This document shows, one piece after another, positions 4,425 to 47,978 of a stretch of DNA of 64,000 nt (the stretch's first letter is position 1; every line of letters begins with the position of its first letter). A program made the translations under genes and the position numbers. Source of the stretch: a virus. Lineage: Duplodnaviria; Heunggongvirae; Uroviricota; Caudoviricetes. Location of the stretch: positions 13,748 through 77,747 of the IMG/VR virus record IMGVR_UViG_2574179769_000003; one strand, written 5' to 3'. The notes beneath the pieces were generated by a model, which was not told where the DNA came from, did not search any database, and was given only the letters and a program-made list of their open reading frames with translations.

Positions 4425-7400
4425 CTATAGTTTTATCACCTCATAATCATTTAATATTTCTTCTACTTCATCAGTTGCTATCCATTTCCCTTCAGCATCA
4501 GGTCGCTTTTTAAATTCTTTATCTAACTCCTTTATGCTTAAAACCGAAAACTGGTCAAATGGGTTGTCTCTGAATTTTTTTCCTCTTTTAATTCTTGTTT
4601 TTATCTCTTGTCCATTGTTTAAGTTTCTTATAATTAATCTTGGGGTTGTTGGATTATTTCCTATAACAAAATCTATAACTATATAATACATATTGTTTAT
4701 TTCAGAGTTTGAATAATCAGTATATCCTAAATTTTCAATTTCAAATTTTATCTGCTTTACTACTGGCATTGGTTTTGGGCAAACTTTCTCTAAAGTTATT
4801 GATAGTTCTTTCAAAAGGCTCAAATTATCAATATCTCTATATTGTTTTGGAGTAATTTTTTTTGAATACTTCTCTAAATAATATTCCGATATTCCTATTT
4901 TTTCTAATTTAGATTTTGAAATAATTTTAGCGTTTCTTAATTGAATGTATTTATTATAAACTTCTTCCAAATAAACGTTATTGCCAAAATCCGAAAAATA
5001 ATTAAGACCAATCAAAATCCTTGTTTGTCTTTCATCTAATGATGTTTTACTCATATCATCTAATAATTCTATAAAAGAACTATAGTTATTTTTTGCTAAT
5101 TCAAACAACTCTTCTGCGATCTGACCATTACAATATTTTATACTCTCAATGCCTTGATAGATTGAATTTGTTTTCTTATCCATATAAAATTCAGCCTTAG
5201 AATATCCAAATCTTATTCCATTAACATAACAACCTTTTTGGTTTATATAATTTTTAATATTTTTCATTTTATCAGCATCGCTTTTGTAAATATTTAGTGC
5301 AGCAGTAAACGTCTCTAATGGATAATAATGTCGCAAATATCCACAAGCAAATCCTAAGAATGAATATGGATCAGAATGATTCTTACTAAATAAATACGAA
5401 CTTGCATCTTCTATTACTTTTAAAAAATTGACAATTAATTCTTCTGATTCATTCTCTTTCACCCCATAATTTTCTTTCATAGTTTTAAAAAAGCCCTTTT
5501 TTATATCAGGAATATATTTTTCAGTACCAGTTTTTTTAGCAAAACCACGTCTTATTACATCTGCTTGACCCATCGAATATCCACAAAATATATGCAAGAA
5601 TTCTATAACTTGTTCTTGATATACGAGATACCCTAATGTTGGCGCCAGGAATTCATTTAATGCATAATGTCCATTATCTCTATATAATCCTTTAGCTAAA
5701 CTATCACGATAAGATGCGCCCGCAGGCCTTATTGCCCCATTTGCCATAGACATTAAGTCTATATATGAAAAATCTGGATTTTTTTCTCTTATTTTTTCAA
5801 TTACTTCTGGCTTTAATATATCTTTTAAATAATTACCTGCAAAATCTGATTCAAATTGAAAAATCAATGTGGTATCTTTAGCTAAATCTTCCCAAACATT
5901 CATATCAGTAAAATCCATATTTTCAGGTAATAAAAAGTCTATTTTTGCAAGCTTGCAGGTTTTATAAATTAGTCCAACACAGTCTAATCCAAGTACATCC
6001 AGTTTTACATAATTTAAAGAATCAATTTCTTTCATGTTGATTTGTGAAATTGGGTTTTTGTTTGTTTTACTTCTAAACGTTCCAAATTTTCCTTCAATCG
6101 GGTAAGGCGAAACTACTAGTCCAGCAGGATGAGAACCTACAGAAACTATAGTGCCTGATACCAAATCAACATATTTAAATAATTTTGGATATCGTTTTCG
6201 GTATAATTCATCAATTTCAAACTTTTTGTTATCATTTAAGAATACTGCATTGCTAATTTCTTGAGTTTCATTTAGCGACATTCCCAAAGCACGACCGATA
6301 TCCTTAATTGCACCTTTCATTTTGATAGTGTTAAATGTAATAATATCGCAACAATAAAGACCATCTCTTTTAAACAGATAATCTCTTACCATACCTCTGT
6401 CTTCATTAAACCAATCTGTGTCAATATCTGCTAAGGTAATTCTTTCGGTATTCATAAATCTTTCAAAATTCAAATTATATTTAATACTATCTATTTCAGT
6501 AATTCCCAACAGATATGCAATTACACTTCCAGAAACCGACCCTCGTGAGTATCCAAAATTCACTCCTTGTTTTTTTAGATATGACTTGTAATCTTCTTCA
6601 AGCAACAAAAAATCAATTGCCTCATTATGCTTATAAGTTTGCAACTCATAATTAATCCTTTGAATATAGTCTTTGTAATTTGGAAATTTGTTAATCCCCC
6701 TATTTTTTACACCTTCAACAATTTTTTTCAGTAATACACCTTCAGAATCGTCATACAATTTCGGATATTTTTTTGAATAATCTAATCTGAATTCTTCAAC
6801 CATATCACTCATTATGTTTGTATTCTCAATTGCTTGAAGATACACTTCTTCTGGTAATGCATTTTGAATTTTATATGCCTCAACTAACTCATCATATGTT
6901 TTGAAAGACATATCCCAATTATTTTCATCATTTCCAAAGTTCACCCTTTTACCAATCTGCAAAACTCTTCGCCCCTCTAAATCCTCTTTTGTTAAAGCGT
7001 GAGTGTCAGTTCCAGCGATTAACGGTATTCCAGTTGTATCACTTATATTCTTTAAATATTGATTATATTTTTTTGAAAAGCATCATTATGATGTTGCACC
7101 TCTAAAAAACATCTATGCTTGTTTTTTATTAATAAATTTAAAAATCTTTTTTGAATCGCTTTATCTCCCTTTGCAAGAATGCCACCTACGCAAGCTGTAG
7201 TAATGATAATATTGTCGCTGGTTTCTTCCAATTCTTTTAAGCTAATTCTAGGGTGATAATATTTATGATCTTCTTCAAACGCAATTGAAGATAGTTTATT
7301 TAGCTCTTCAACCCCATTGCCATTTTTTGCTATTAAAACACAATGATAATTATCTCGAATCTTCTCAGATAATTCTTCGGTAACATAAAATTCTTCAGCA

Positions 7401-8789: not shown

Positions 8790-9922
8790 TTTTTATTTTT
8801 TAAACTATCTAAGTATTTTTTATGTTCTTTTTCGTCATATTTTATTTTATACTTCATTAAAAATTCGAATATATTACTGCTCTTATCTGCAATAGAATCT
8901 TTGGGATTTAATAAATTATATTTATCATATGTGTAATAAACATTTCTGATACCATAAAATTTTTCGCACATATGACGTATTTCATTAATACTTATATCTT
9001 TATCCAAACTAATGATAATATCTACATTTAAACCAATTAAAATCCTTGCCTGTTCCGAACTTAATGTGTGTCCACTTAAAGCTACTCCAGTTGGATCTTT
9101 TCTAGAATGTCTTTTTAATACACTTTTTTCCGATTCATATACAACTACATAACCATATTTTGTTATATCTTCTTTATTTTCCCATAATCCATATAGGTTA
9201 TGACTTTTTGGGTAAGTAGGAGTAATAAAATATTTTTTTATTCCCAATTCTTCATAATTATCAATAACTGTTCTCTGATTATATCCTAGCAATTTACCAT
9301 CAAGCCAGTATCTTAAGGGAATTATATTTCTCTTATATAAGTGACTATATGCTAACCCGAATTTTTTTATGGTTTGTGGAACAATGCCTTCACGAAACCA
9401 ATCAATATGGATATACGGTATATAATCAATATTCTCCATTTCATCCAAATCTATGTCTTGTACATAAACAGTGCTTCGTTTGATTTTTTTAAACACTTCT
9501 AATGGATCATTAACTTGTTTTTTTACTTTAACATCTTTATTGTATGTTAATGGTATATCAAACAATTTGTGTACATATTTAATTGCTTCTCGAAAATCAA
9601 AATTTTGATTAGTTCTAGAAAAATTATACTGTATCAGTGTAAATATATCTGATTTGATCTCATCATTACTTTTAAAGTATTCTTCTCTTGTATAGTTACG
9701 AACATTAATATATTTATTATTATTAACAACTATACAAGAAGGATTATCTCCATCAATGTTCCCACAAGTAAAATATTCTTTATTTTTATTATATTTAATA
9801 TGATGACATCCAATTTCATTTAGAACATATTCGATCTTACAATTATTAAAAATGTATTCTTTTAGTTCTAATCCTGTCATCTTTAACCCTCTAATAATCC
9901 ATTGGAACGTTTGTGAATCCAA
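8786..9922 (-). CDS. dnaG: DnaG-like DNA primase (zinc-finger + TOPRIM)
   Basis: N-terminal CHH...C...C zinc-binding segment; TOPRIM-like YVVVYESEKSVL ... SLDKD acidic motifs; lies between the helicase loader/helicase and polymerase genes. Confidence 0.55.
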   Translation of the reverse strand: MDSQTFQWIIRGLKMTGLELKEYIFNNCKIEYVLNEIGCHHIKYNKNKEYFTCGNIDGDNPSCIVVNNNKYINVRNYTREEYFKSNDEIKSDIFTLIQYNFSRTNQNFDFREAIKYVHKLFDIPLTYNKDVKVKKQVNDPLEVFKKIKRSTVYVQDIDLDEMENIDYIPYIHIDWFREGIVPQTIKKFGLAYSHLYKRNIIPLRYWLDGKLLGYNQRTVIDNYEELGIKKYFITPTYPKSHNLYGLWENKEDITKYGYVVVYESEKSVLKRHSRKDPTGVALSGHTLSSEQARILIGLNVDIIISLDKDISINEIRHMCEKFYGIRNVYYTYDKYNLLNPKDSIADKSSNIFEFLMKYKIKYDEKEHKKYLDSLKNKN

Positions 9923-11342
9923 CTTCTTTCAAAATATTTCTACTTAAATCATGTTCAACTACTATCTGATATGTATTGGCTGCACCCTCTCTGTTTTTAA
10001 CAATAAATATTATTTGATAATGCTTATTATCAGCCAATCTTACTGGCACCTTTGACAATCCATTTTTACCAGCATACGTATAGATATTTAACGCCCGTTT
10101 ACCGCCTGGTCTTTCATCGTCAAATAATGTTCTTATCATCAAACAGGTACTTGCAGGATCAACAATATTTTTTGCCATACCAATATTGTCTTGAGTATAA
10201 TATCTTTGCATTACACTTCCTTTTGATAATTGAAATGTGATAAGTATATGTACATTTTTACTCTCTGGTTTTACAATATCGTTAATTTCAACCATGTTTT
10301 GTTGCATTTGCAACCATGCATGACTCTCAACCTTTCCTGCATCCATTTTATAAGTGTCTAGTGCAAAATATCTAATACCAAGACTTATGTATTTATTCAT
10401 AATTTTAATAACATTTTTAGTTTTATACTTTTTAAAAGGAATTATAGTAATAACATTATCTTTGTCTTTATTTTCTATCCATTTTGCTGCTTCAAGTAAT
10501 AATTCTTTGGTCTCATTTTTGAAAGAGCCATCTCTAACTGTTTGTTTTTGAAGATCTTTTTTTATAACATTATTGGCCACATATACCAAAAATTCACGTT
10601 GCCATTTTTTTAGTCCATCCTCATTAAGCATAATGACTATTTTCTCATTATTTTCAATAATGCTTGGTATCGTAGAACTTCTTAAAAAAGCAGATTTTCC
10701 AACATTAGAGAGCCCACCAATTAAAGTAATTGAACCCATATATTGTCCGCCAGTTTCATTAGTTAACATCCTCATGTTGTGATATGGTAAACCAACTGCC
10801 AACCCTTCATCTAATTCATCAATTAAATCTCTAATTTTGTAAGATATACTGTATGACTTCATATCTGTATCAGCATTGATGAATATATCATTAAACATAC
10901 ATTCATATTCTTCATAGATTTCTTCAGTTGTACAATCTATAAATTCTTTTAACTTGTTGTCATCAACAATAATTCCCATTTTACAGAGTTTTATTACTAT
11001 GTTCCATTTTTTCAATTCACTAATATATCCATTAAAATTATCTTCAGAAATATATTCGATAGCATTTTTTATAGTATTATAACCGCCAAAATTTTCATAA
11101 ACTGTTTTTAATTTTGGATGTTTTTCTAAATATAAACCAACAGTAATAACATCTAATACATTCTTTTTTTCAATATTATATAAGTCATTCACTATTGCAA
11201 AATATACCTTCCAAGCATTATTGGTAAAATCATTAATGCTTAATTCAACGTTGGATAATAATTCAGGTTTTTTAAATAATATTGAAACTATATTTGCTTC
11301 ACAAGGCAACTTGATTTCAGCAACCTTTTTAATAGTACTCAA
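9891..11342 (-). CDS. dnaB: DnaB-like replicative DNA helicase
   Basis: DnaB N-terminal domain-like start (EANIVSILFKKPELLSNVELSINDFTNNAWKVYFAI); P-loop GGLSNVGKSAF in a RecA-like C-terminal domain. Confidence 0.7.
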   Translation of the reverse strand: MSTIKKVAEIKLPCEANIVSILFKKPELLSNVELSINDFTNNAWKVYFAIVNDLYNIEKKNVLDVITVGLYLEKHPKLKTVYENFGGYNTIKNAIEYISEDNFNGYISELKKWNIVIKLCKMGIIVDDNKLKEFIDCTTEEIYEEYECMFNDIFINADTDMKSYSISYKIRDLIDELDEGLAVGLPYHNMRMLTNETGGQYMGSITLIGGLSNVGKSAFLRSSTIPSIIENNEKIVIMLNEDGLKKWQREFLVYVANNVIKKDLQKQTVRDGSFKNETKELLLEAAKWIENKDKDNVITIIPFKKYKTKNVIKIMNKYISLGIRYFALDTYKMDAGKVESHAWLQMQQNMVEINDIVKPESKNVHILITFQLSKGSVMQRYYTQDNIGMAKNIVDPASTCLMIRTLFDDERPGGKRALNIYTYAGKNGLSKVPVRLADNKHYQIIFIVKNREGAANTYQIVVEHDLSRNILKEVGFTNVPMDY

Positions 11343-19303: not shown

Positions 19304-19731
19304 ATCTCACTTCTAACTTTCATTAAAATTTTGCCTAGTTTGTTTTCTCCTACAATATCTTTACACTTAGGACACTCACAATTGCCCCAAATATTATCAT
19401 GCCAACCAGTCGTTCCTTCAATCAATTCATGAGGATATGTATCTAATAACTTTTTCTTTAAATATTGGTGTTGAGTAAATTTTGCTTTAACAATTTCATA
19501 CATATATTTTTCTTTTACTTTTTCCCAATCATCTCTTAAAAGTATTTTTCTCCCTAGTTTCTTGGCTTCGACAGGATTTAAATTTTGAAATTTAATCTTT
19601 TCACTAATTCTAGTTATTTTTTGTGCTTGAAAAGCAGCTTCATTATTAAGATAAACTATCCCATCATATTCAATTGGTGTTTCATAATAATTGCTTAAAA
19701 AACGATATTTACCTCTAAAGTTATCAATCAT
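19300..19731 (-). CDS. NADAR (YbiA-like, DUF1768) domain protein
   Basis: FLSNYY...IEYDGIVYLNNEAAFQAQK...GWHDNIWGNC resembles the YbiA/NADAR fold. Confidence 0.55.
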   Translation of the reverse strand: MIDNFRGKYRFLSNYYETPIEYDGIVYLNNEAAFQAQKITRISEKIKFQNLNPVEAKKLGRKILLRDDWEKVKEKYMYEIVKAKFTQHQYLKKKLLDTYPHELIEGTTGWHDNIWGNCECPKCKDIVGENKLGKILMKVRSEI

Positions 19732-21195
19732 TAAAATTCTCCTTTATTTAATCTTTGACGAATTTGTTCAAATGATTCTTCTCTTTTTAACATACCATTG
19801 CTAAACATTTTTTCTAATGACGTATTTTCTGTAGAAACTAAACAATTATATCCATCTACGCATTTATATCCATCTTCTGTTTTAATAACAGCACAACAAC
19901 CTTTATGAGATTTCTTTAATTTTGATGTGTCTGTTTTAGGATTTTTATAAATAGGGAATTTGAAATTTCCAACTTCCCCATAAGTAGCCTTCATAGCAAT
20001 ACCAAATGTATCTCTTGTATTAACAATAAACTTTCCATCATCTTCAAAAATAGCATGGAAGCAGAACGCTCCTACTCCAAATACAATGTTGTTAGCAGCA
20101 AACCCTAGTTTATATAACTCTTCATAGATTTCTTCGACTTTATTTATAGTACATCCATCCCCATAAATAATGCCAATATGAGGATCTAATACTTTATATC
20201 CTTTACTATTGATACTTCCACCAAATGTTTTCCACAAGAGTTTAATTGTTTCAATTGATATTTCAACAATATCTCCGCTATCAGGTCTAATTAATAACTT
20301 TCCATTGTGATTCATAATTTCTTCTTTGCATTGAGGTAAAATATTTTTTACTATATTCCAATAATCATAAGTATCAGATACCATGCTGAATGAAGTATTA
20401 GGATATAATTCTGTTAATAATCTTTTTACAAAAGTGATTTCATCGCCATCAACTGAGAAGTTAGCTCCCATAACTGCATGCTCTGTAGATACAGCTCCAA
20501 TTCCAATATTTTTATCAGCATTATAATATTCTCTAATATATTGCAATGCGGGGATTGTACTTGTCTTATCAAAAGATAACAGCCATGATGCAGATGTTCT
20601 AATAGAATCTTCTAAACATGACATACCTCTCATTCCAAAGTCTGACATAGCCATTCTAGAATCCATATTATCAACTGTTAGATCATAATATTTGTTTGCT
20701 ACTTCCTTATAAATCTTTCCAATAGTAGCGTAATTACATGTTGGCCATAATTCTACTTGTAGAATACATTCTAGCCATTGTACAACCCACGCAAAATCTG
20801 GATGAGTATTTGTCAATTCAATACAAGGAACTCCCATATTAACAATACTTCCTTCAGGCAATGCTCTAATTAGAATGGGTAGATACCCTAATTTATGAAG
20901 ATTTATGATTGCGTCCAAATCATAGTTTCCTTCGCCTAATTGTGTGTCCATATAGGAATTATATTCTCCAATAACCTCATCTATTGGTTTGTTAAAAAAG
21001 TTATTATTAAAAATCTTCGACAAGATACTTTTTGATAAACTCCTGCAAACCAAAGAACACCATTTTATCATACTTCTCTGACATCGCTTTTCTAGGTGTC
21101 CAATAAGAAACCAATTTTGTTAAATCCTTAGGAAACATTCGCAGATGTGTTTGTTTATATGTATCCGACAATAATAAGGTTGTTAAATTTTTCAT
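19731..21195 (-). CDS. nadV: nicotinamide phosphoribosyltransferase family protein (NadV/NAMPT or Namat-like); frames joined across a T5 run near 21010..21020
   Basis: N-terminal fragment LLSDTYKQTH...VFFGLQEFIKKYL matches the NAMPT N-terminus; the main ORF has LIRPDSGD and EHAVMG-region motifs. T5 to T4 fuses the frames (LVEDFNNNFFNKP). Confidence 0.8.
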
Positions 21196-25929: not shown

Positions 25930-26553
25930 TTATTCATATTTTCTGAAAATTCTTTGAAATATATTTCTTGATTTAAGTGTAAAGATTTCTTTATTAAGTT
26001 TCTCAACTATGTTTTTTAGCGAGTAATATGCTTTATCAATGTCATTTTGCAGATTTTCATTATTTCTATACCATTTGTTTGATAAATAGATACTTTCGCC
26101 AGATGTTTTAATCATTGCTAATGATCCGATTTGTGGCAAATCCAAATTATCAAGAAGAATTTTATTGCAGTGAATATTCCCAGCAACTGATGAGTTTCCC
26201 CACATATCGTGATGAATAATATTTGTATCACATTTATTTACAGCTTTAAATTGACAATTTTCATCATCATATTTTATATAATAATATTCAAATGTTTTAT
26301 TTGATAATTCAAAAGGTAAAATATCACCCTCATATATTAATTCATCATTCAAATCTGTTAATCCAGTACACATGTTTATAACCCAATCTTCACCACCAAA
26401 AACATACGATGCTTCAAATTTAATGTCTGAATCTTTATTGCAAACAAACCACATTTCACCCTCAATAACTTGAGAGTAAAATGTTAGATCATAGTAATCT
26501 TCAATATCGCCCTGATAAAATGCTCTAAATTTCTGTTCCATTTTACAAACCAT
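25930..26553 (-). CDS. YopX-family phage protein
   Basis: KFRAFYQGD...MCTGLTDLNDELIYEGDIL matches the YopX signature (KFRAW..., GL.DKNG..IYEGDI). Confidence 0.55.
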   Translation of the reverse strand: MVCKMEQKFRAFYQGDIEDYYDLTFYSQVIEGEMWFVCNKDSDIKFEASYVFGGEDWVINMCTGLTDLNDELIYEGDILPFELSNKTFEYYYIKYDDENCQFKAVNKCDTNIIHHDMWGNSSVAGNIHCNKILLDNLDLPQIGSLAMIKTSGESIYLSNKWYRNNENLQNDIDKAYYSLKNIVEKLNKEIFTLKSRNIFQRIFRKYE

Positions 26554-27238
26554 ATTTAATAGCTATTTCTTTAACAATTGCTATATATCCTTCAATTAGT
26601 TTTTTATCATCTGCAATAACATCTAAACTATTTGTTCTTTCTATTTTAGATTTGCAGACACCTTCTTCTAACATTCTTCTACGTTTGTTAGTCAATCTTG
26701 TTGGCAAATTAACTCCCATTCTACGTTCAAGAAGTTTATAAGACTCATTTCTAACATCCTTAAAAGATACTTCACCATTTGAACTTGTACTTATTTTTCG
26801 TAACAACTTATTAGTTTCATCTCGCCATGATGTGTGATCAATAGCTACAACTTCTCTAATACCCTTAACATCATCTTTGACTTGTTTAAGTTGTTTTTCA
26901 TGTTCATTTTGTTTTAGTTCTAGTGAAATCAATAATCTTAGTTCGGGTGATAAATTCTGTAACTGCAATTGAGTATCACGTGCTTTATTTTCAACTGTTA
27001 CAAAATAATCTCTTGCTTCTTTTCCTCTAACCGAATGAGATTCCATAGATAAGTGTTTGGCAAAGTCTGTTGTTAGCTTATAATCTTTACATTTATTACC
27101 GCTCGACATGATGTCGAACCCCCACCAATCCTTGTTCTCATCATAAAATATATTCTTCTCTATGTTCTTTTTAGCCCATCTTGCAAATTGCGTTGGTGCT
27201 AATTCTAAAAAATCATACAACTTTCTGGCAGTTGTCAT
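26543..27238 (-). CDS. AntA-like phage antirepressor
   Basis: RKLYDFLELAPTQFARWAKKNIEKNIFYDENKDW resembles the AntA N-terminal domain. Confidence 0.5.
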   Translation of the reverse strand: MTTARKLYDFLELAPTQFARWAKKNIEKNIFYDENKDWWGFDIMSSGNKCKDYKLTTDFAKHLSMESHSVRGKEARDYFVTVENKARDTQLQLQNLSPELRLLISLELKQNEHEKQLKQVKDDVKGIREVVAIDHTSWRDETNKLLRKISTSSNGEVSFKDVRNESYKLLERRMGVNLPTRLTNKRRRMLEEGVCKSKIERTNSLDVIADDKKLIEGYIAIVKEIAIKYGL

Positions 27239-27303: not shown

Positions 27304-28275
27304 TTATAATTGTTCATTCCTTTCTTGTTTTTTAATTACATCAAACATTTCTTCAATGTTATTTGTTAGCTTATACCTCTTAGTTGATGTACTGTTTCGA
27401 GCAAACTTACCTTCAACTGCATCTACATACATATTAGAAGATCCTTCTTCTCCTTGGTAAAACTTATCCCATGCAGAATCTGAAATCCATCTACGTACAT
27501 TTAGTTGAGTTAAAGCTAAATTATCAAAGCTAACTACCTTAAAATTTTTAAATAACCAATCGATGTTTCTACTTAATTTAATGATTCTATTTTCTATTTC
27601 AACTCCATTTTTTTCATATAACTTATTTCCTCGTCGAAAATGTTTATAACCTAAAATTAATACTTTTGGATTAGAAAAATTATTGATTAAATATGATAAT
27701 TCTTTGTAGTCAACTAATCCTGCAATAACATGGAATACCACATTTTCTACCTCACCATATACTTCTTTCAAACATTCTGATTCTTTTATAAAAGATACTC
27801 CAATTCCATGAAGATATCCTTTTTCTTGCCAAGACTTTATCTTATCTATATTAGATACAAATTCATCTTGATGAAAAGTAGCATTAGTAACAATTCCTTT
27901 TTTATATAACTTTTCTAGCAATTCATCTAAATGTGGGTAACTAGTCAACATTCCACCGCCGAGCGCTGCTTCAGAACCAGATACCCAACTATTGATAAAA
28001 TCAAAGTTTTCTAGTGGTGCATGTTTACCTTCTGGGGATGAGTTTTCGTGACACATGTCACATCCAAACGTGCAACAATTAGTCACTTTAATGTCCATGT
28101 TCATTGGCATTTTAAAATTAAATTCTTTATCTTCTGTTTGACATATTCTTGTTCCATCAGTATATAATTCAATATTTGCATTGCCATTTCTATATGTTCG
28201 CAATAAACTAACCGTCATAACCATATTCTCCAAATGCCACAACAATTTCACCTGAAGAAGTTGTAAATTCATCAT
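27304..28275 (-). CDS. radical SAM enzyme (CxxxCxxC)
   Basis: VTNCCTFGCDMCHE contains CTFGCDMC = CxxxCxxC; GGGMLTS glycine-rich segment downstream. The true start is probably internal (overlaps the next ORF by 68 bp). Confidence 0.55.
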   Translation of the reverse strand: MMNLQLLQVKLLWHLENMVMTVSLLRTYRNGNANIELYTDGTRICQTEDKEFNFKMPMNMDIKVTNCCTFGCDMCHENSSPEGKHAPLENFDFINSWVSGSEAALGGGMLTSYPHLDELLEKLYKKGIVTNATFHQDEFVSNIDKIKSWQEKGYLHGIGVSFIKESECLKEVYGEVENVVFHVIAGLVDYKELSYLINNFSNPKVLILGYKHFRRGNKLYEKNGVEIENRIIKLSRNIDWLFKNFKVVSFDNLALTQLNVRRWISDSAWDKFYQGEEGSSNMYVDAVEGKFARNSTSTKRYKLTNNIEEMFDVIKKQERNEQL

Positions 28276-28588
28276 AGAATTTTTCTAATTCATAATTATC
28301 ATCATCATAAAACCCAAAATCCAAATCATCTAATAATATTCTAATTGATTTCTTGTCGGTTAAATTATAGTCTTTAATTTTGTTTTTGTAGTATTCTTCT
28401 GTTTTAATAAAATCAAGAGCTTCGTCAATAGTTATAAACGTTTTGTCACCTTTATATAGGTATACATTCTCAGTTGAAACAACTTCTCCACGTTGCCATG
28501 CTTCATAATCTGATTTCAGGCACATTGTTAAACTGTGAGTAGAGCTACTATTTGTCTCAAAAGTGTTATTTCTAATTATTTTCTTCAT
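28208..28588 (-). CDS. hypothetical protein, paralog A (conserved N-terminus MKKIIRNNTFETNSSSTHS)
   Basis: 126 aa; N-terminal ~25 aa nearly identical to the adjacent gene 28604..29092. Confidence 0.5.
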   Translation of the reverse strand: MKKIIRNNTFETNSSSTHSLTMCLKSDYEAWQRGEVVSTENVYLYKGDKTFITIDEALDFIKTEEYYKNKIKDYNLTDKKSIRILLDDLDFGFYDDDNYELEKFYDEFTTSSGEIVVAFGEYGYDG

Positions 28589-28603
28589 TAATTTTCTCCT
28601 TAA

Positions 28604-29092
28604 TTATTCATATTTAACATCACCGATTACAAATCGATCATTTCCGCCAGTTACACCTGAATAATCATAGTCTCCTGTAATCAGTACATCTGTTTTATCA
28701 TCCAATAAGTAGTTTATTAATAAGACACTATCTTCCAAGACTCTGTCTAAGAGATCTGACCCCGCATATTGTGCTTGATGATTAATTAAATAGGTATTTT
28801 TTATTTCTCTATATTCGTGTTCAAACTTTAACTTAGTATTAGGTAATGCTTTTTGTAACGCCTCTTTTAATTTATTTTCCATAAAACATTGAATAGCTAT
28901 AGAATAAAGATAATTTGCTCTACCTTGCATTGAACTCATATCGTCGCCATCAAATGGATAATTATGAAATTCATGTGCCTCAAAGTTAATTTCCTTGGGG
29001 TGAGATATTTTTTTATCTTTAATACAAATCGAAAACGAATGTGATGAACTAGAGTTAGTTTCAAAAGTATTTTTTCTAATAATTCTTTTCAT
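28604..29092 (-). CDS. hypothetical protein, paralog B (N-terminus MKRIIRKNTFETNSSSSHS)
   Basis: 162 aa; tandem paralog of 28208..28588. Confidence 0.5.
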   Translation of the reverse strand: MKRIIRKNTFETNSSSSHSFSICIKDKKISHPKEINFEAHEFHNYPFDGDDMSSMQGRANYLYSIAIQCFMENKLKEALQKALPNTKLKFEHEYREIKNTYLINHQAQYAGSDLLDRVLEDSVLLINYLLDDKTDVLITGDYDYSGVTGGNDRFVIGDVKYE

Positions 29093-29215
29093 TTATAATC
29101 CTTCCTTTCCAATATCTTTATATTGACGATAAATAACTTCTAAATGTTATAACCATCATGTTTCACAAAGCCTGTATTTACAACTAGGGGTTCAATCCTT
29201 TATAAAACCTACTTT

Positions 29216-29911
29216 TTATTTAATTTCTTGCTCAACTCTTTCAAGTCTTTTATTTGCTATGTTGAAATAATTTTTATCAATCTCAATTCCTAAAAATTTT
29301 CTACCTGTTCTGAGCGCAGCTTCACCCGTAGAACCACTTCCTGCAAACCCATCAAATACAATATCGTTTTCATCACTGTGTTTTCTAATACATTGTTCTA
29401 ATAACTCTATTGGTTTTTGATTTTGGTGTAATTGCTTTTTACCACTAACTCTATCAAAGTACCAAACGTCAGTCAGGCGCTTCCCATTAAAAAATTTTCT
29501 TCCTTTGTTTACCAAAATTATCATTTCATATTGTTTTCCAAATTGTGCCTTTAAATCGCCTGCTGTCCAATTGTTTTTAATCCATATAATTATATTCTTT
29601 ATTTTAAAACCAGTCTTTTCTAATTCGGTTTTAAAAAAATCAATTTTATTGGAATTGCAGAACATATACATTGCTGTATTATTTTTCATAATTCTATAGC
29701 ACTCCGATATATATAATTGTATTAACAAGCTATCATTATCGCCACTAATAGGTGTACAAAACATATGTGACTTATCTTTTCTGCGGTTTGTTTTATAATT
29801 CATTAAATATGGTGGATCTGTTACAATTAAATCTACGCTTTCATCAGGTATTTGTTTCATTACCTCTAGACAATCGTCTTGTTTTAGAATAAACTTTTTA
29901 TTATTACTCAA
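29216..29911 (-). CDS. DNA methyltransferase, N6-adenine/N4-cytosine class (DPPY)
   Basis: LIVTDPPYLMNY catalytic motif IV and C-terminal FDGFAGSGSTGEAA SAM-binding motif I (beta-class permutation). Confidence 0.75.
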   Translation of the reverse strand: MSNNKKFILKQDDCLEVMKQIPDESVDLIVTDPPYLMNYKTNRRKDKSHMFCTPISGDNDSLLIQLYISECYRIMKNNTAMYMFCNSNKIDFFKTELEKTGFKIKNIIIWIKNNWTAGDLKAQFGKQYEMIILVNKGRKFFNGKRLTDVWYFDRVSGKKQLHQNQKPIELLEQCIRKHSDENDIVFDGFAGSGSTGEAALRTGRKFLGIEIDKNYFNIANKRLERVEQEIK

Positions 29912-30057
29912 TTTATTACCTTATAATCGAAAATATTTTCTTTAACTAGTATTATTTTATTTCCTTTCTCTTCTTTATTTTCTATATTTGTTTTATTTGA
30001 TATTCTTTGTCTTTTTATCCACGTCTGAATAAAAAGTTTATTTTATTTCTTAATCAA

Positions 30058-30112
30058 CCATTTGTAATTGTAAAGTAATTAATTTTAATAAATCTAAATG
30101 AATTACAAATGG
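30058..30112. promoter_or_regulatory. perfect 12-bp inverted repeat (CCATTTGTAATT ... AATTACAAATGG) between the two methyltransferase genes
   Basis: Arms at 30058..30069 and 30101..30112, 31-bp AT-rich spacer; operator-like. Confidence 0.5.
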
Positions 30113-30132
30113 ATTAATATATCTATTTCTAT

Positions 30133-30732
30133 CTATTTAAATTCCAATAGATGCAATCTAGTAATACCCTTATACCCCTTTTTCCATACAAAGTGAGCAT
30201 ATTCTACACTATCGGTTCCACCATCTTTTGTAAAGCTCATACGTTTTGAATGCACGTATATTTCATATGGCATATTATTTCTTAGCCAGATATTTCTATC
30301 TTTACTTCCAAGAAAATTCAATCTAAGCAACATAATTACATAACCATTTTCACTTACATCACACATTGCTTTTTTGACAAAATCCATTGCTAAATTAAAT
30401 GGCGGATTAGTAAAAATAATATCAGCGTTATAATCGGGTAAAATTTTTGATATGTCTGTATCCAAATAATTTACTCCCTTAAAATTTGCTTTACTATCCA
30501 TTCTTATGTCCAAAGTTTCAATATTCCAAACTGGAAAAACTTTTTTTATAGCTTCTGGATAACTCATATCGTTATCTTTATCTCCACCAGCACAAGGATC
30601 TAATACGTTTTCTATGTTATTCAATTCATTATGATTTCCCTTGAAAACTTTTAAAAAATTAATTATATCCTTTTGAGGTGTTACATAATAATCAAACTTA
30701 TTACGCTCTTTCCCTCTATTTGTACTGCTCAT
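30133..30732 (-). CDS. DNA adenine methyltransferase (NPPF)
   Basis: VLDPCAGGD (motif I) and IIFTNPPFN (motif IV, NPPF). Confidence 0.6.
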   Translation of the reverse strand: MSSTNRGKERNKFDYYVTPQKDIINFLKVFKGNHNELNNIENVLDPCAGGDKDNDMSYPEAIKKVFPVWNIETLDIRMDSKANFKGVNYLDTDISKILPDYNADIIFTNPPFNLAMDFVKKAMCDVSENGYVIMLLRLNFLGSKDRNIWLRNNMPYEIYVHSKRMSFTKDGGTDSVEYAHFVWKKGYKGITRLHLLEFK

Positions 30733-30818
30733 TAATTATAAAAACCTCCAAAACAGTTGGTTTCTTTTAGAAAACTTTTTATATTTTACCTCCATAAATT
30801 ATTAATAAAAGTAATATT

Positions 30819-31397
30819 TTAATTACTAAAACCAAAGTGATTTCTTATTTTGGTTCTTATATTTTTAATGACTCTTGATACTTGAACCTGAGAAATACTA
30901 TATCTTTTTGCAATATCTACTTGATTTTCACCATTAATATATAAATTAAACATTTCTAAATCTCTTGAACTAAAATTTGACTTTAAATACGCTAATATTT
31001 CATTTAACAATACATGATTATTTTGGTTTGAAAACTTGTTAAATTTATATTGTATTAATTCTATAAATTCTGTTGGCTTACCATTTTCGTTTCTTATTTC
31101 ACTATTTAACGACATTGCCCCAATCGTTTTAAATTTACAATTTTTATTTCTATTATAATAATGGTTAATTCTATATTTTATTGGCTTTGTTAAAAAATAT
31201 GAAAACTTAACATTTTTTTCCACATCAAATTTTTGACAATAAGAAAGATAAGTTGTTAAACAATAATCAATTAAATCTTGTGGTGGTGTATGATAATTTT
31301 TCCTATTGTACTTATTTACCATCCATATAAACAAAGGATAGTTTTTTTTCAACAAATTCATCAATACACTCTCCTTTAAAGTTAAGCACAACTCCAA
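30819..31397 (-). CDS. phage-encoded sigma-70-family sigma factor
   Basis: C-terminal region-4 HTH LSSRDLEMFNLYINGENQVDIAKRYSISQVQVSRVIKNIRTKIR; region-2-like N-terminal half. Confidence 0.6.
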   Translation of the reverse strand: MELCLTLKESVLMNLLKKNYPLFIWMVNKYNRKNYHTPPQDLIDYCLTTYLSYCQKFDVEKNVKFSYFLTKPIKYRINHYYNRNKNCKFKTIGAMSLNSEIRNENGKPTEFIELIQYKFNKFSNQNNHVLLNEILAYLKSNFSSRDLEMFNLYINGENQVDIAKRYSISQVQVSRVIKNIRTKIRNHFGFSN

Positions 31398-31401
31398 CCT
31401 C

Positions 31402-32279
31402 CTATTTTTCTAATAGTTTGCTAATATCAATCATATTATTATTGCTTCCACTAACAGTTGGTAATTCTCCATCCCATTTTTCAATCCATTGTTCAATTAA
31501 AATTTGATCTGTCAACTGACTTGTCTTAACAGCATTTGCATTTGCTTCGCCTTGAGCTTTAATCAACTTTGTTTCCGCTTCTTTTTGAGCTATTTGCTTG
31601 TTTTGCTCTGCTGTTTCTACATTTTTCTTAGCAACAGCTTCTTGTTTGATTGCATTTTCAATTTCAGCTCCAGCATCCATATCTTTTATGGTTAGATCTT
31701 TAAAGTTACGCCTTCTGAAGCATATTTTTCTTTCAATAAATTACTTGCTTTACCAATAACTTCATTACGTTTGTCACCTAAAATATCAATAATATTATAT
31801 TGAGTACATACTTCTGATAAAGCACTTTGAGCATAGTTGGCAATAATATTTTTATTTAATGCTTCTAACGTCTTATATCCCTTATATACTTTAAACGCAT
31901 CTTTACTAGATACCTGGTATTTAATATTTACTACCATTTCCAAAAATTGAGCATCTGAAGTTTGAACTTTAATTTTTTCTCCTGTTCTTTCTTGGACAGT
32001 TGTATCAATTTCATAAATAGTATCAAATGGTGTTTTAAAGTGTACCCCCTCACCTAAAGTGTTTTCACTAGTTCCACTAAATGAACTATATTTAACGCCA
32101 ACTGTATTTGCTGGAACAACTGCAACACACATTGAACTAATAAATAAAACTAACGGAATTAATGCATATAATCCTCTTTTATTTGGCTTAAATTTTTCTT
32201 CTGTAAAATCAAATAGCCCCCATACAACTAAACTAACAACTGTAATTAATAAAATAGCCTGTAAAGTAAATTTAAACAT
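31402..32279 (-). CDS. SPFH/band-7 (prohibitin/HflC-like) membrane protein; frames joined near 31682..31690
   Basis: N-terminal TM helix then SPFH core (GVKYSSFSG...QERTGEKIKVQTSDAQFLEMVVNIKYQV); the shifted C-terminal fragment FKDLTIKDMDAGAEIENAIKQEAVAKK... is the typical SPFH C-terminal coiled-coil. Confidence 0.6.
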
Positions 32280-35416: not shown

Positions 35417-36235
35417 TTAAAATTTTGAACATGTGTTCCAAATTTCTTGTTGAAGTTTAACAACATCATTTTCAAATAACTTACAAGCAATTTCATACAA
35501 CTGAGGAATTTTGTGTAACCCTCTATCCATTTTATTTTTAATTTTTGGTTTAATGTTTTTATATTTATCAGAATCCATCCTCCGATTTAAGTCCATTTTA
35601 TATTTCATTTCAAATTCATGATAAAGCAGATTGTATCTTTCGCTATACTTATCGCTACCTTGTCTAATAATTTGAGTAATTCTTCTACGCTTTTCAGCTA
35701 AGTCAATATCATCAACTAATCCGCCTATTACATCTTCTTTATACATAACTTCCTTTGTTAATTCTTTATTTTCTAACCGTAAATTTTGACGCTCAGTTTC
35801 TTCTTCAATCCATCTCTTAGCTCGTTCAATTGGATTTTCGATCATATAGCTATCTTTAACTGTTCTAATCGAATAATTTCCCGTTTTTCTAATAGTAGGC
35901 AACACATCTTTGGCTACCCAAATTTGAAACTTCTTAGCAATATTATTATTTGCTTTCATAGCTAATAAATAAAATACTGGTTCAGGGATAAAAATGTCTT
36001 CCCCCACAAGTGGGGGAACGCCGAATTCGCTTAAGAAATTTTTAATTCTTTCCCACCTGATACTTGTATATTGTTTACCTTTTTTATTTTGAGTTTGAGT
36101 AAATCCTAATCCTCTAGCAGCATCTTCTAAACTTACTGAAATACTGCCATCATCATTGTACTTTACCCCAATATCCAATCCTAATTCTTTGTTTTTAAAT
36201 ATTTGTAATTCACACAATTCCAAAATTGCCTCCAT
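35417..36235 (-). CDS. Bro-N-domain antirepressor
   Basis: ELQIFKNKELGLDIGV... and FQIWVAKDVLPTIRKTGNY (the Bro-N W...VLPxIRKTG signature). Confidence 0.6.
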   Translation of the reverse strand: MEAILELCELQIFKNKELGLDIGVKYNDDGSISVSLEDAARGLGFTQTQNKKGKQYTSIRWERIKNFLSEFGVPPLVGEDIFIPEPVFYLLAMKANNNIAKKFQIWVAKDVLPTIRKTGNYSIRTVKDSYMIENPIERAKRWIEEETERQNLRLENKELTKEVMYKEDVIGGLVDDIDLAEKRRRITQIIRQGSDKYSERYNLLYHEFEMKYKMDLNRRMDSDKYKNIKPKIKNKMDRGLHKIPQLYEIACKLFENDVVKLQQEIWNTCSKF

Positions 36236-37697: not shown

Positions 37698-37774
37698 TAT
37701 GGTGGACGTTATCGGATTTGAACCGATCAACTGAGAATTATGAGTTCTCTGCTCTAACCTATTGAGCTAAACGT
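37698..37774 (-). tRNA. tRNA-Met (anticodon CAU; elongator or Ile2-type), CCA encoded
   Basis: Hand-folded cloverleaf: acceptor GGACGTT/AACGTCC, D-arm GCTC-AATAGGTTA-GAGC, anticodon arm GAGAA-CTCATAA-TTCTC, T-arm ATCGG-TTCAAAT-CCGAT, discriminator A, CCA. Confidence 0.8.
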
Positions 37775-37802
37775 CCAAATTGTAGAAAATAATTTCTACA
37801 AA

Positions 37803-41667: not shown

Positions 41668-42969
41668 TTAATTTTTATTCAGAGTTTGTTGAAACATTTT
41701 TGTTGGAGATTTACCATAATCAGCACACATAGCATTAAATGTTTCCATAACCATACCCCACTCTTCTTCTCTAACACGTGATATTAGTGAATCATTTTTA
41801 TTTTGTTTTCTTGAATTAAGGTAAATCCCATATTTATACTGAAGCTGTTTATACAATTGTTTCCAAATAGTTCCAATATAATGATTAGTTTGAGCTGCTA
41901 ACATCCTTACACCTGCATTTAATTTATTTCTATCGTTCCAAGTAAGAATTTCAGATTTTAACGCCTTAACGTCTGTTTCCAACAACTCATTCTGTTCTTG
42001 TAAAACTTTATTAGATGCTAACAGTTCTGTTACCATGGCTCTTTTAGTATCTTCACTAAAATTACTAAAACGTGATTCTATAAATTTTTCTTCTGATCCA
42101 TATTCTATTGCACCACCTGTTTTGCGAATTGATGGTAAAACCTCACTTGTTACCCATTGTTTAAATTCCCTTGCTTGAGATAATTTGCTAGACAATATTA
42201 GTGAATATAATCCAGATTCATTAATAGCAGTTAGTCCTCTGTTTGGAATGTCTAAAGTAACGAATCGTGACTTTAGCATTCTAAACTTATCATCCTCATC
42301 TACATGATCGTCAATTGCCTTTCTAGCATTTGAATATCCTAAAACATCACAAATTTCTTTTCCAATAAAAAATACTACATTGTTAATATTCAAGCACCTT
42401 ATTTTAAATCCTCTAAAATTAAAAATGTCAAATTCTAAATTTTCTATTTCTTGGTCTATCTTTACTTCATTATTTTTATCTTTATATGGTTCTACTGTGC
42501 CACCTGTTTTGCGAATATCACGAAGATAACTTTTAATTTTTGACTTAATTTCTTTTGCAATAGGCTTACGTGACTGCATCAATACCTCATATAAGCCATC
42601 TTCAGTAAGAAACCACATGTTTTGAGTTTTTCTAGCTTTTGATTTGGTTTTGTCTGATGGTGAAATTGCTCCATAAAATGAATTAAACGTACTTTTATTA
42701 GAATTATTGCCTTCATTTGTGATAGGAAAATTTTTCCTATCATATAAATTACACACTCCTTTTATCTTTTCGTCTGAATCAATATTTTTAATCATTTTAG
42801 ATATATCTCTTGAAGTTCTTTTTGCATTAGTAAAAGCATAATCAATCCATTCTGCAACATCTCTTGCTAAAAACAATGGATTCTCAACTGTGTTATATAG
42901 ATTAATTTTCTTCCCTAGAATTTCTACTGATTCAATTAAATTAAATGTTTGTAAACTTGTTTCTTTCAT
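41668..42969 (-). CDS. BRO-family protein with two Bro-N domains
   Basis: First Bro-N near the N-terminus; second: FNFRGFKIRCLNINNVVFFIGKEICDVLGY ... WVTSEVLPSIRKTGG. Confidence 0.65.
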   Translation of the reverse strand: MKETSLQTFNLIESVEILGKKINLYNTVENPLFLARDVAEWIDYAFTNAKRTSRDISKMIKNIDSDEKIKGVCNLYDRKNFPITNEGNNSNKSTFNSFYGAISPSDKTKSKARKTQNMWFLTEDGLYEVLMQSRKPIAKEIKSKIKSYLRDIRKTGGTVEPYKDKNNEVKIDQEIENLEFDIFNFRGFKIRCLNINNVVFFIGKEICDVLGYSNARKAIDDHVDEDDKFRMLKSRFVTLDIPNRGLTAINESGLYSLILSSKLSQAREFKQWVTSEVLPSIRKTGGAIEYGSEEKFIESRFSNFSEDTKRAMVTELLASNKVLQEQNELLETDVKALKSEILTWNDRNKLNAGVRMLAAQTNHYIGTIWKQLYKQLQYKYGIYLNSRKQNKNDSLISRVREEEWGMVMETFNAMCADYGKSPTKMFQQTLNKN

Positions 42970-46876: not shown

Positions 46877-47146
46877 TCACCACTCCAACCTTTTCCCAAA
46901 TGTAATAACCTGACCAATTTCTCCATCAGACATTTCGACATTCATAATTGCACAAATTGAACCATTCTCGTCAACACCTTTAAAATTCTTTTCAATTAAG
47001 CCAATTGTTTCTTTTTTAGAAAACTGTCTAGTCTCCATTTGACTCATGTGTAAATCATTAGACAGTTCACAATAATCGCTGTGTTTACTTTGCGAAGATT
47101 TATTTTGAGTAACCTTTTTGTCAATTATCATATTAACCCTCCACAA
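46877..47146 (-). CDS. hypothetical protein
   Basis: 89 aa ORF. Confidence 0.4.
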   Translation of the reverse strand: MWRVNMIIDKKVTQNKSSQSKHSDYCELSNDLHMSQMETRQFSKKETIGLIEKNFKGVDENGSICAIMNVEMSDGEIGQVITFGKRLEW

Positions 47147-47978
47147 CTGTAATTGCGTTTTCTATAGTTGGTACAATGCCATGTTCTTTTAGTGTCTTAT
47201 AGATAAACAACACCCCGTCTTTAGTCCATGCGTTAAATTTTCTTTTACCTACAATTTCCTTATTTTCCCACATATTTTTAAAAGTTGATATCATATACTC
47301 TTCTTCGCTTCCTTCGTACTGTTTGGTTAAAGTCCATACTCCACCTACTTTTTTCTGAATCTTAAATTGGTTTAATAGTTTGTTAAATGAAATGGCACTC
47401 ATTCCATAACACTGAGCAATTTCACTAGCCAAATATCTATCTTTAGACCCCTGTAACAGTTCCATTAAACTTGTCTTTTCTACATTTTCATTTTTTAACC
47501 GTTCGTTCTTTTCTTCTAAAGCAATAAGTTTACTGTTAGCCACAATCAATGCTCTCGACATAATTTCATCATCTGTCATATTTTCTTGTCCATATATATA
47601 ACCGCCATGTTTCCTAATAGATGGTAGCACATCATGTGTTATCCACTTTTTAAATCTTGTAACATTATCTGTTTGAAGTTTACTACCCATTATCAACGAG
47701 TACATTCCTGGTTCATTAATTAAAGTTGGATATGCTCTTTTATTGTTGTTACCGTAAAATATATTTGACGATAGGCTATCATTCCCTAAGGTGGAAATTT
47801 TATCATCTTTATCCAATTTCCTCATAGCGCTTATAGGATCAGTATATTCTAAAGCTTCAGCTAAATCTTTTCCCACAAACCAAGGATCACCATCAATTAA
47901 AATCGACCTAATTTGATGACCTTCAAACTCAAAATTAAATATTTCATTTTCTTTATTTTTAATTACTATTTCATTCAT
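47133..47978 (-). CDS. Bro-N + KilAC antirepressor
   Basis: NFEFEGHQIRSILIDGDPWFVGKDLAEAL and WITHDVLPSIRKHGGY (Bro-N); QCYGMSAISFNKLLNQFKIQKKVGGVWTL (KilAC-like). Confidence 0.65.
   Translation of the reverse strand: MNEIVIKNKENEIFNFEFEGHQIRSILIDGDPWFVGKDLAEALEYTDPISAMRKLDKDDKISTLGNDSLSSNIFYGNNNKRAYPTLINEPGMYSLIMGSKLQTDNVTRFKKWITHDVLPSIRKHGGYIYGQENMTDDEIMSRALIVANSKLIALEEKNERLKNENVEKTSLMELLQGSKDRYLASEIAQCYGMSAISFNKLLNQFKIQKKVGGVWTLTKQYEGSEEEYMISTFKNMWENKEIVGKRKFNAWTKDGVLFIYKTLKEHGIVPTIENAITVVEG

Follow-up and report, generated by a model that had tools for sequence, protein, structure and literature searches.

A radical SAM enzyme linked to small proteins with a shared serine-rich N-terminal tag in viruses of bacteria and archaea

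Why should a radical S-adenosylmethionine (SAM) enzyme be encoded directly behind two small proteins that open with nearly the same 25 residues and show no detectable similarity beyond them? The question is raised by a region (positions 27304-31397) of a 64,000-nucleotide stretch of Caudoviricetes DNA, positions 13,748 to 77,747 of the IMG/VR record IMGVR_UViG_2574179769_000003, which is referred to here as the window. The window is a large phage-like element of low GC content (25-31%) with nearly all of its genes on the minus strand. An initial annotation of the region had described a radical SAM gene with the motif CTFGCDMC, two small genes, two DNA methyltransferases and a sigma factor, and all six open reading frames (ORFs) were found at their coordinates on the minus strand. 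As set out below, the radical SAM enzyme and the small tagged proteins are the constant members of a module that recurs in viruses of bacteria and archaea, and the enzyme may act on the tag itself. The features of the module in the window, in which the two small proteins are designated A-type and B-type, are as follows.

28604-29092, minus strand: A-type tagged protein, 162 aa; tag MKRIIRKNTFETNSSSSHS, then a predicted α/β domain
29018-29092, minus strand: DNA for the shared N-terminal tag (residues 1-25) of the A-type protein, the sole region aligning with the B-type protein
28208-28588, minus strand: B-type tagged protein, 126 aa, acidic (pI 4.45); tag MKKIIRNNTFETNSSSTHS, then a tail unrelated to that of the A-type protein, with a conserved C-terminal AFG-YG motif
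28514-28588, minus strand: DNA for the shared N-terminal tag (residues 1-25) of the B-type protein, as aligned with the A-type tag
27304-28218, minus strand: radical SAM enzyme, 304 aa, with a single [4Fe-4S] cluster motif
28051-28074, minus strand: codons for the CX3CX2C cluster motif (C49, C53 and C56 of the 304-aa enzyme), invariant alignment columns

Along the minus strand the 162-aa gene comes first, followed by the 126-aa gene and then by the radical SAM gene. The ORF listed for the enzyme spans 27304-28275, and the ATG at 28218, which gives a protein of 304 aa, is the likely start because the NCBI protein uses the same start and a GGAGAA Shine-Dalgarno sequence lies 7 nt upstream. This ATG sits 8 nt ahead of the stop codon of the 126-aa gene, so that the two genes are considered translationally coupled; the B-type gene has AAGGAG as its ribosome-binding site. 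Promoter and terminator scans gave results at or below chance, and a megablast search of the 4-kb region against GenBank phages returned no match. Proteins encoded in this region are identical to NCBI records CWE04_11440 and CWE04_11430 from a ~359-kb contig of Thomasclavelia cocleata, and the phage-like element is therefore probably an integrated prophage.

Two protein families with one N-terminal tag

Alignment of the 162-aa and 126-aa proteins is confined to residues 1-25, where 18 of 25 positions are identical and 23 of 25 similar (E = 7e-7), and profile-profile comparison of the A-type and B-type tails with hhalign detected no homology (probability 0.1%). The two had at first been described as paralogs with a near-identical N-terminus; the shared N-terminus stands while full paralogy does not, and the proteins represent two different families with one common N-terminal module of ~25 residues. 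The serine codons of the tag differ between the 162-aa and 126-aa genes (TCT AGT TCA TCA versus AGT AGC TCT ACT), and the similarity is therefore attributed to selection on the peptide rather than to a recent DNA duplication. In a six-frame translation of the window the tag motif (R..FETNSSSxHS) occurs exactly twice.

The families were defined by taking tagged genes from related loci, removing the tag and clustering the tails. The A-type subfamily comprises 76 distinct sequences of 144-262 aa, the 162-aa protein of the window among them, with the consensus ...HSICI..P..F..GEFGWE...KASYLY...YIDH...TGNDN...Y.KGN. The 66 distinct sequences of the B-type subfamily, which are mostly 95-160 aa long and include the 126-aa protein, follow the consensus ...HSITMC..SDY..W..GE...TTP.G..VVAFGYYG.D, the latter part being C-terminal. 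Across about 137 A-type sequences E11, N13, S14, S15, S16 and H18 are invariant and R6, F10 and T12 near-invariant; a 32-sequence alignment of B-type proteins shows R6, E11, N13, S14-16 and H18 as invariant and C23, E102, G113, A118, F119, G120, Y122 and G123 as near-invariant.

Modelling of the A-type protein with AlphaFold2 from the 137-sequence alignment predicts a confident α/β structure (predicted local distance difference test, pLDDT, 89.9; predicted template modelling score, pTM, 0.85). In this deep model residues 1-15 lack regular secondary structure and have a pLDDT of 68-78 against about 95 for the core, while a shallower model forms short strands within residues 1-15 that would form a tag hairpin with TNSSS at its tip. 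As modelled, the tag would be peripheral to the A-type core.

Both small proteins had been left unassigned in the initial annotation, and curated libraries did not assign them either: the A-type protein gave no sequence-profile match in Pfam, NCBIfam, PADLOC or PDB, and the B-type protein none in Pfam, NCBIfam, PADLOC (E <= 0.1), PDB profiles or PHROGs. The 162-aa protein does match phrog_28997 (E = 3.2e-10), to which PHROGs assigns no function. Foldseek against BFVD returned a single match, an uncharacterised phage protein, and the A-type fold matched neither a sulfatase nor any solved structure tested. Several candidate identities were rejected on sequence and fold evidence, namely SGNH hydrolase (wrong motif order), 2H phosphoesterase (just one H-x-S motif) and Toprim, DEDD, PHP and PP-loop (patterns that do not fit), each without a fold match.

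Linkage of the tagged proteins to the radical SAM enzyme

The module was defined by a T-N-S-S-S-x-H loop in the first ~25 residues of a protein together with a radical SAM enzyme of this family, either within 5-6 kb on the same strand or fused; in the window both small proteins carry the loop. Each of the 86 enzyme-anchored loci first examined (86/86) has between one and six tagged genes, which share the strand of the enzyme and in nearly every case lie immediately upstream of it. The order A-B-radical SAM seen in the window is the commonest (55/86), and at 15 of the 86 loci at least three tagged genes accompany a single enzyme. One to six tagged genes per enzyme reads as a ratio of an enzyme to its clients. 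Genome-derived loci behave similarly, 70 of 80 being tag-positive at a first scan and three more at a relaxed scan, with truncated contigs or stand-alone cellular copies making up the rest. When viral loci were instead anchored on the tag, 75 of 80 had the radical SAM gene within 5 kb on the same strand, and the misses include two loci in which it lies just beyond the fetched flank and two short or truncated stretches. The tagged family and the enzyme are the only ubiquitous families of these neighbourhoods, in 80 of 81 distinct architectures from the first 89 loci and in 162 of 162 from the full set of 171 loci, and the tag was seen on no other protein of these loci. Genes immediately flanking the module are mostly unique to each locus, which argues that it is autonomous. 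The unit is thus made up of the tagged proteins and the radical SAM enzyme, a self-contained mobile module whose linkage is near-obligate in both directions.

The two components are also found as one protein. In Salmonella phage Arash, a culturable carrier of the module, gp146c (OQ632216; locus L089, 4491-5921), annotated as a 'methyltransferase', consists of an A-type domain (MYLTQIRYGFATNSSSSHS...YIDHES...LGGNDN) fused to the radical SAM enzyme. The family of such fusions has 726 matches at E <= 1e-10; the best 120 of these are 435-570 aa long with coverage of at least 92%, and 115 of the 120 start with (F/L/H)ATNSSS(S/T)H. Records of the fusion include Methylobacterium, Thermoanaerobaculia and Promethearchaeota, and the context of three inspected fused loci and of Arash resembles a mobile element or phage. 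Common to split and fused A domains are R6, F10, T12-S16, H18, FGW, K..YL, (I/V)DH and G(G/N)NDN. The initial annotation had taken the small proteins for substrates or partner subunits of the enzyme within one functional unit, a reading that the near-obligate linkage in both directions and the widespread fusion bear out.

The module is widespread in viruses of both bacteria and archaea. An A-type profile recovered 1230 representative clusters (50% identity) at E <= 1e-3, nearly all of the matches listed being 140-200 aa long and matched across most of their length. A word-indexed search yielded 361 homologues of the enzyme; 531 IMG/VR contigs encode a relative, most of those listed being 50-210 kb, and 185,579 species-representative genomes contain 112 stretches that do so, mostly from gut metagenome-assembled genomes (MAGs), with several from Methanomassiliicoccaceae or Methanobrevibacter. 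Deposited phages with relatives are the Prevotella Lak megaphages, Microcystis phage Ma-LMM01 and its kin, Rhodothermus phage RM378, Thermus phages phiYS40 and TMA, and Salmonella phage Arash.

Some individual loci deserve mention. An 80-kb viral contig (L001, 3882-6014) has four tandem tagged genes (185, 128, 148 and 178 aa) ahead of the radical SAM gene, with a 61-aa Cys-rich ORF (phrog_4331) directly upstream of the four. At six loci (L018-L024; for example L018, 5567-5713) the second tagged gene is a truncated B-type of just 48 aa, which may represent decay of the B partner in one lineage. In one lineage of large gut phages (L002-L005 and about 17 gut-phage loci; for example L002, 8473-9582) the module is followed 2-3 kb downstream by an adenylosuccinate-synthetase-like gene (PF00709), which may encode a PurZ-type enzyme for 2-aminoadenine genomes; genes for PAPS-reductase/PP-loop proteins and for a P-loop kinase-HD protein also recur. 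A Christensenellaceae MAG (L111, 5992-6879, on a 220-kb contig) has a homologue of the enzyme with no tagged gene within 6 kb, a rare cellular copy flanked by genes that, as judged from their sequences, look ATP-grasp-like, alpha/beta hydrolase-like and BirA-like.

Possible actions of the enzyme and rival explanations

The cluster motif of the window enzyme, C-TFG-C-DM-C, has the form CX3CX2C, with C49, C53 and C56 invariant in 27 homologues, and places the protein by motif in the radical SAM superfamily. These three are the only invariant cysteines in the homologue alignment, which argues that the enzyme has no SPASM or twitch auxiliary cluster. Its N-terminus is a conserved β-rich segment of about 40 aa (Y.NGN...DGT), and its C-terminal half contains many invariant polar residues, with SFDNLA..Q, FYQGDDG and YID.V...FA.NS conserved. 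The window enzyme scores 17.5 bits against PF04055 (gathering cut-off 29.5), a family to which many of its homologues and all of the fused relatives have precomputed matches, and it matches phrog_16999, 'Fe-S oxidoreductase', at E = 1.2e-36. The family profile aligns to the radical SAM core of GDGT-MAS (E = 4e-5), and there are similarities to SkfB, PqqE, QueE, MoaA, viperin, WgkB and MftC; all of these best matches, that to GDGT-MAS included, are sub-threshold and limited to the first ~100 core residues.

Assignment of the enzyme to an established class was rejected in each case considered. For a SPASM/twitch maturase (anSME, AlbA, SkfB, PqqE, MftC) the NCBIfam matches are far below their cut-offs (AlbA, for example, 16.9 bits versus 850) and there are just the three invariant cysteines. 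QueE models, at about 13-21 bits, also fall far below their cut-offs, and no companion genes for 7-deazaguanine modification (QueC/QueD/FolE, DpdA) occur among the conserved neighbour clusters. Models of viperin-like antiviral enzymes (NF038283/TIGR04278) reach at best 39.7 bits on fused relatives, against a cut-off of 180, and do not match the window enzyme, while the match to the His-Xaa-Ser (Hxs) system is sub-threshold and confined to the core. An NrdG or PFL-AE activase, which the initial annotation had named, together with a well-known unrelated domain for the small proteins, as what would overturn its proposal, did not materialise: TIGR02495 (NrdG2) gave 17-23 bits on relatives against a cut-off of 131 and left the window enzyme unmatched, and the window has no NrdD- or PFL-sized gene that could encode a glycyl-radical partner, its only ORFs of more than 500 aa being those of a DNA polymerase and a helicase. 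PADLOC models matched neither the enzyme nor the A and B proteins at E <= 0.1.

We tentatively favour, at somewhat less than an even chance, the proposal that the enzyme is a dedicated maturase, whose action is directed at the serine-rich tag or exerted through it. The tag would be a portable N-terminal 'serine finger' of ~20-25 residues, composed of a short strand, the invariant loop T-N-S-S-S-x-H and a second strand, which heads at least two unrelated domains (A-type and B-type). The finger would dock onto the enzyme, the 5'-deoxyadenosyl radical would take a hydrogen from an invariant residue of the loop, most plausibly a serine, and that residue would become a catalytic group, a cross-link or a radical needed by the attached domain. 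Tagged proteins would then be clients, on which the enzyme would act in trans in the window and in cis in the fused relatives, and the A-type domain would be the effector, given its enzyme-like conserved polar residues (FGW, K..YL, I/V-D-H, G-N-D-N). A maturase of this kind would explain why the similarity of otherwise unrelated proteins is limited to the tag, why the loop is so extremely invariant (in about 137 A-type and 32 B-type sequences), why there are multiple clients and why the A domain is enzyme-like. Also in its favour are the bidirectional linkage with one enzyme for one to six tagged genes, the translational coupling, the Rosetta-stone fusion, the peripheral tag as modelled, the variable neighbours and the enzyme's weak best similarities, in the core only, to peptide or protein maturases, MoaA and viperin.

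Several points weigh against a maturase. Its chemistry is wholly inferred. The glutamate of the tag is not universal, being replaced by A in fused forms, S in Rhodothermus phage RM378 and M in Thermus phage phiYS40, although distant relatives keep the core T-N-S-S-S despite this variation. A few cellular homologues of the enzyme, such as that of L111, stand alone without a tagged gene, and no second tagged gene was found near the fusion in the three inspected loci or in Arash. Fused members would have to modify themselves, an unusual situation, and permanent fusion is expected for functional domains more than for substrates. Auxiliary clusters are present in the known radical SAM enzymes for Ser or Cys oxidation in proteins (anSME) and absent from the window family, and to our knowledge two-electron oxidation without auxiliary clusters has few precedents.

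The fusion also speaks for the main rival, in which the tagged proteins are subunits or domains of a hetero-oligomeric radical SAM enzyme, the tag works as either a docking strand or a catalytic loop, and the substrate is universal, most plausibly RNA or tRNA (in repair or in protective modification against host ribonuclease defences) or else a nucleotide. We regard it as rather unlikely. It is supported by the widespread fusion of A domain and enzyme with no other tagged gene nearby and by the enzyme-like polar residues common to split and fused forms, and the many invariant residues of an enzyme whose hosts extend from archaea to cyanobacteria fit a universal substrate. In several deep lineages, moreover, genes for RNA repair are found repeatedly close to the module and on its strand. 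Of 257 loci, 24 have an RNA ligase-like gene, which lies 15 nt from the radical SAM gene in L257, is separated from it by RlaP alone in L006 and L103 (both Methanomassiliicoccaceae), and is two genes downstream of gp146c in Arash (gp143c, annotated as an RNA ligase); RlaP and the P-loop kinase-HD protein each occur in further loci. However, this association is seen in only about 10-20% of loci, where a common early-gene region may account for it, a number of tagged genes that varies from one to six per enzyme is odd for obligate subunits, B-type proteins have the loop but none of the other A-domain residues, and no known RNA- or nucleotide-binding domain was detected.

It is improbable that the tag is a targeting or assembly peptide, serving capsid packaging or homotypic A-B pairing, with the enzyme merely co-targeted or co-assembled. 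Targeting peptides are typically portable modules at the N-terminus of unrelated domains, and in the fused forms the enzyme itself carries the tag; but T-N-S-S-S-x-H is absolutely invariant in viruses of archaeal, cyanobacterial, thermophilic and gut origin, far beyond what targeting signals show, the tag is confined to the two partner families of these loci, and it has no consistent link to structural genes.

The genes directly upstream of the module in the window bear on a third explanation, a DNA hypermodification cassette in which the enzyme and the small proteins act together with two adjacent DNA methyltransferases.

29216-29911, minus strand: N6_N4 DNA methylase (PF01555, E = 3.6e-39)
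30133-30732, minus strand: DNA methyltransferase with TNPPF (phrog_799, E = 3e-48)
30819-31397, minus strand: sigma-70/ECF-type sigma factor (TIGR02937, 54.1 bits against a cut-off of 42.9)

Phages use radical SAM enzymes such as QueE for DNA base modification, and the close relative L255 keeps N6_N4 methylases beside its module. Homologues of the two methyltransferases are nevertheless present in just 22 of 257 and 5 of 257 related loci and those of the sigma factor in none (0/257), so that these genes are neighbours rather than conserved partners; no conserved neighbour is a gene for nucleotide metabolism, a glycosylase or a transferase, and the QueE and viperin models score far below their cut-offs. 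The initial annotation had placed the unit beside the methyltransferases and the sigma factor and had named hypermodification first among its readings, an idea that these counts and the mostly locus-unique neighbours do not support and that we regard as distinctly improbable.

A classical system, either an NrdG- or PFL-type activase with a glycyl-radical partner or a precursor-maturase pair making a small bioactive ribosomally synthesised and post-translationally modified peptide (RiPP), the latter having also been considered in the initial annotation, is the weakest alternative and highly improbable, since a small, single-cluster enzyme like the activases, a near-invariant C-terminal Gly-rich motif AFGYYG in B-type proteins and weak matches to peptide maturases are outweighed by an NrdG2 score of about 20 bits and the missing NrdD/PFL-sized gene, by a motif that is not RVxG[FWY] and is absent from A-type and fused forms, and by partners that are folded proteins of about 95-262 aa with an N-terminal conserved part and no conserved protease, exporter or SPASM domain nearby.

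Returning to the maturase proposal, the neighbourhoods weakly suggest a role in phage RNA repair or counter-defence. A more specific version of it, which is doubtful, sees in the T-N-S-S-S-x-H finger a precursor from which a minimal single-cluster radical SAM enzyme, in trans or in cis, would make a new protein-derived cofactor or protein radical; the module would then be a portable catalytic device of bacterial and archaeal viruses, possibly for RNA repair or for countering host ribonuclease-based immunity. If true, this would amount to a new class of radical SAM-dependent protein maturation with a client of new fold.

Elsewhere in the window the phage-like element encodes two helicases and a DNA polymerase.

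2743-4350: RecD/Dda-like helicase
4425-6962: DNA polymerase
9891-11342: DnaB-like helicase

Next to the sigma factor, at 31402-32279 on the minus strand, neighbouring ORFs of 195 and 92 aa correspond to successive segments of phrog_200 (positions 46-249 and 258-362; SPFH/Band 7, PF01145). Since these are consecutive parts of one family and the counterpart in L255 is a single Band_7 ORF of 291 aa, the window gene looks as if it had been split by a frameshift or stop, be it a pseudogene, a sequencing error or recoding. A nicotinamide phosphoribosyltransferase of 446 aa (19731-21071, minus strand; phrog_448, E = 1.7e-141) may serve NAD+ salvage of the kind that phages use against NAD-depleting defences. 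The sole tRNA of the window is a tRNA-Met (CAT) at 37700-37776 on the minus strand, and there are at least four anti-repressor paralogs (AntA/Ant, phrog_130/373; 26543-27238, 35417-36235, 41668-42969 and 47133-47978).

Novelty and comparison with known systems

A search of the literature found no description of a module of radical SAM enzyme and tag, and the curated libraries and literature searched contain no record of a common tag, of two client families, of their obligate linkage to the enzyme or of the fusion. The families phrog_16999 and phrog_28997 had already been clustered from phage genomes, and the PHROG families include gp128 and gp130 of Ma-LMM01; PHROGs gives neither family a specific function and makes no mention of their linkage, the common tag or the fused form. 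Deposited annotations of the module genes read 'hypothetical', 'Fe-S oxidoreductase' or 'methyltransferase'. The module appears to be a new, uncharacterised system, in kind a radical SAM enzyme with protein partners of its own.

The radical SAM superfamily is very large and most of its members are without known chemistry. Here the module offers a clear handle, with an invariant seven-residue loop in the partners, near-obligate linkage, a natural fusion and, in Arash, a culturable carrier. Knowledge of the reaction might bring to light a novel post-translational modification or cofactor, or a new phage strategy such as RNA repair, counter-defence or host takeover, and would correct the 'Fe-S oxidoreductase' and 'methyltransferase' annotations. 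Should the tag be the precursor of a new cofactor, the system would be more than a radical SAM enzyme with dedicated protein partners.

Among characterised systems, PqqE/PqqD/PqqA and MftC/MftB/MftA combine a radical SAM maturase, gene-adjacent and sometimes fused accessory domains, and ribosomal precursors with invariant modified residues, and the PqqE and MftC models are among the weak best matches of the window enzyme. These systems differ in their SPASM clusters, their RRE domain and their short precursors modified near the C-terminus, whereas the partners described here are folded and carry an N-terminal invariant loop.

In the glycyl-radical activases (PFL-AE, NrdG) a small single-cluster radical SAM enzyme acts on a protein loop that enters an active site, and the 126-aa B-type protein is near the size of GrcA/YfiD, a small stand-alone radical domain. 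In contrast to these systems the tag has no invariant glycine, there is neither RVxG[FWY] nor a catalytic subunit of a glycyl-radical enzyme, and the NrdG2 score is far below its cut-off. In the pairing of anSME/AtsB with the Ser-type sulfatase AtsA, the radical SAM enzyme is encoded beside its client, and a short invariant Ser motif near the N-terminus of the client joins the client's active site; the enzyme of the window type is likewise in tight linkage with partners whose N-terminal loop is Ser-rich and invariant. The anSME enzymes possess a SPASM domain with two auxiliary clusters where the window family has three invariant cysteines only, and the sulfatase motif (C/S)xPxR is replaced by TNSSSxH in a system that is phage-borne and often fused. 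By analogy, anSME with the Ser-type sulfatases and the glycyl-radical activases with their finger loops would be the closest counterparts of the tagged proteins and their radical SAM enzyme.

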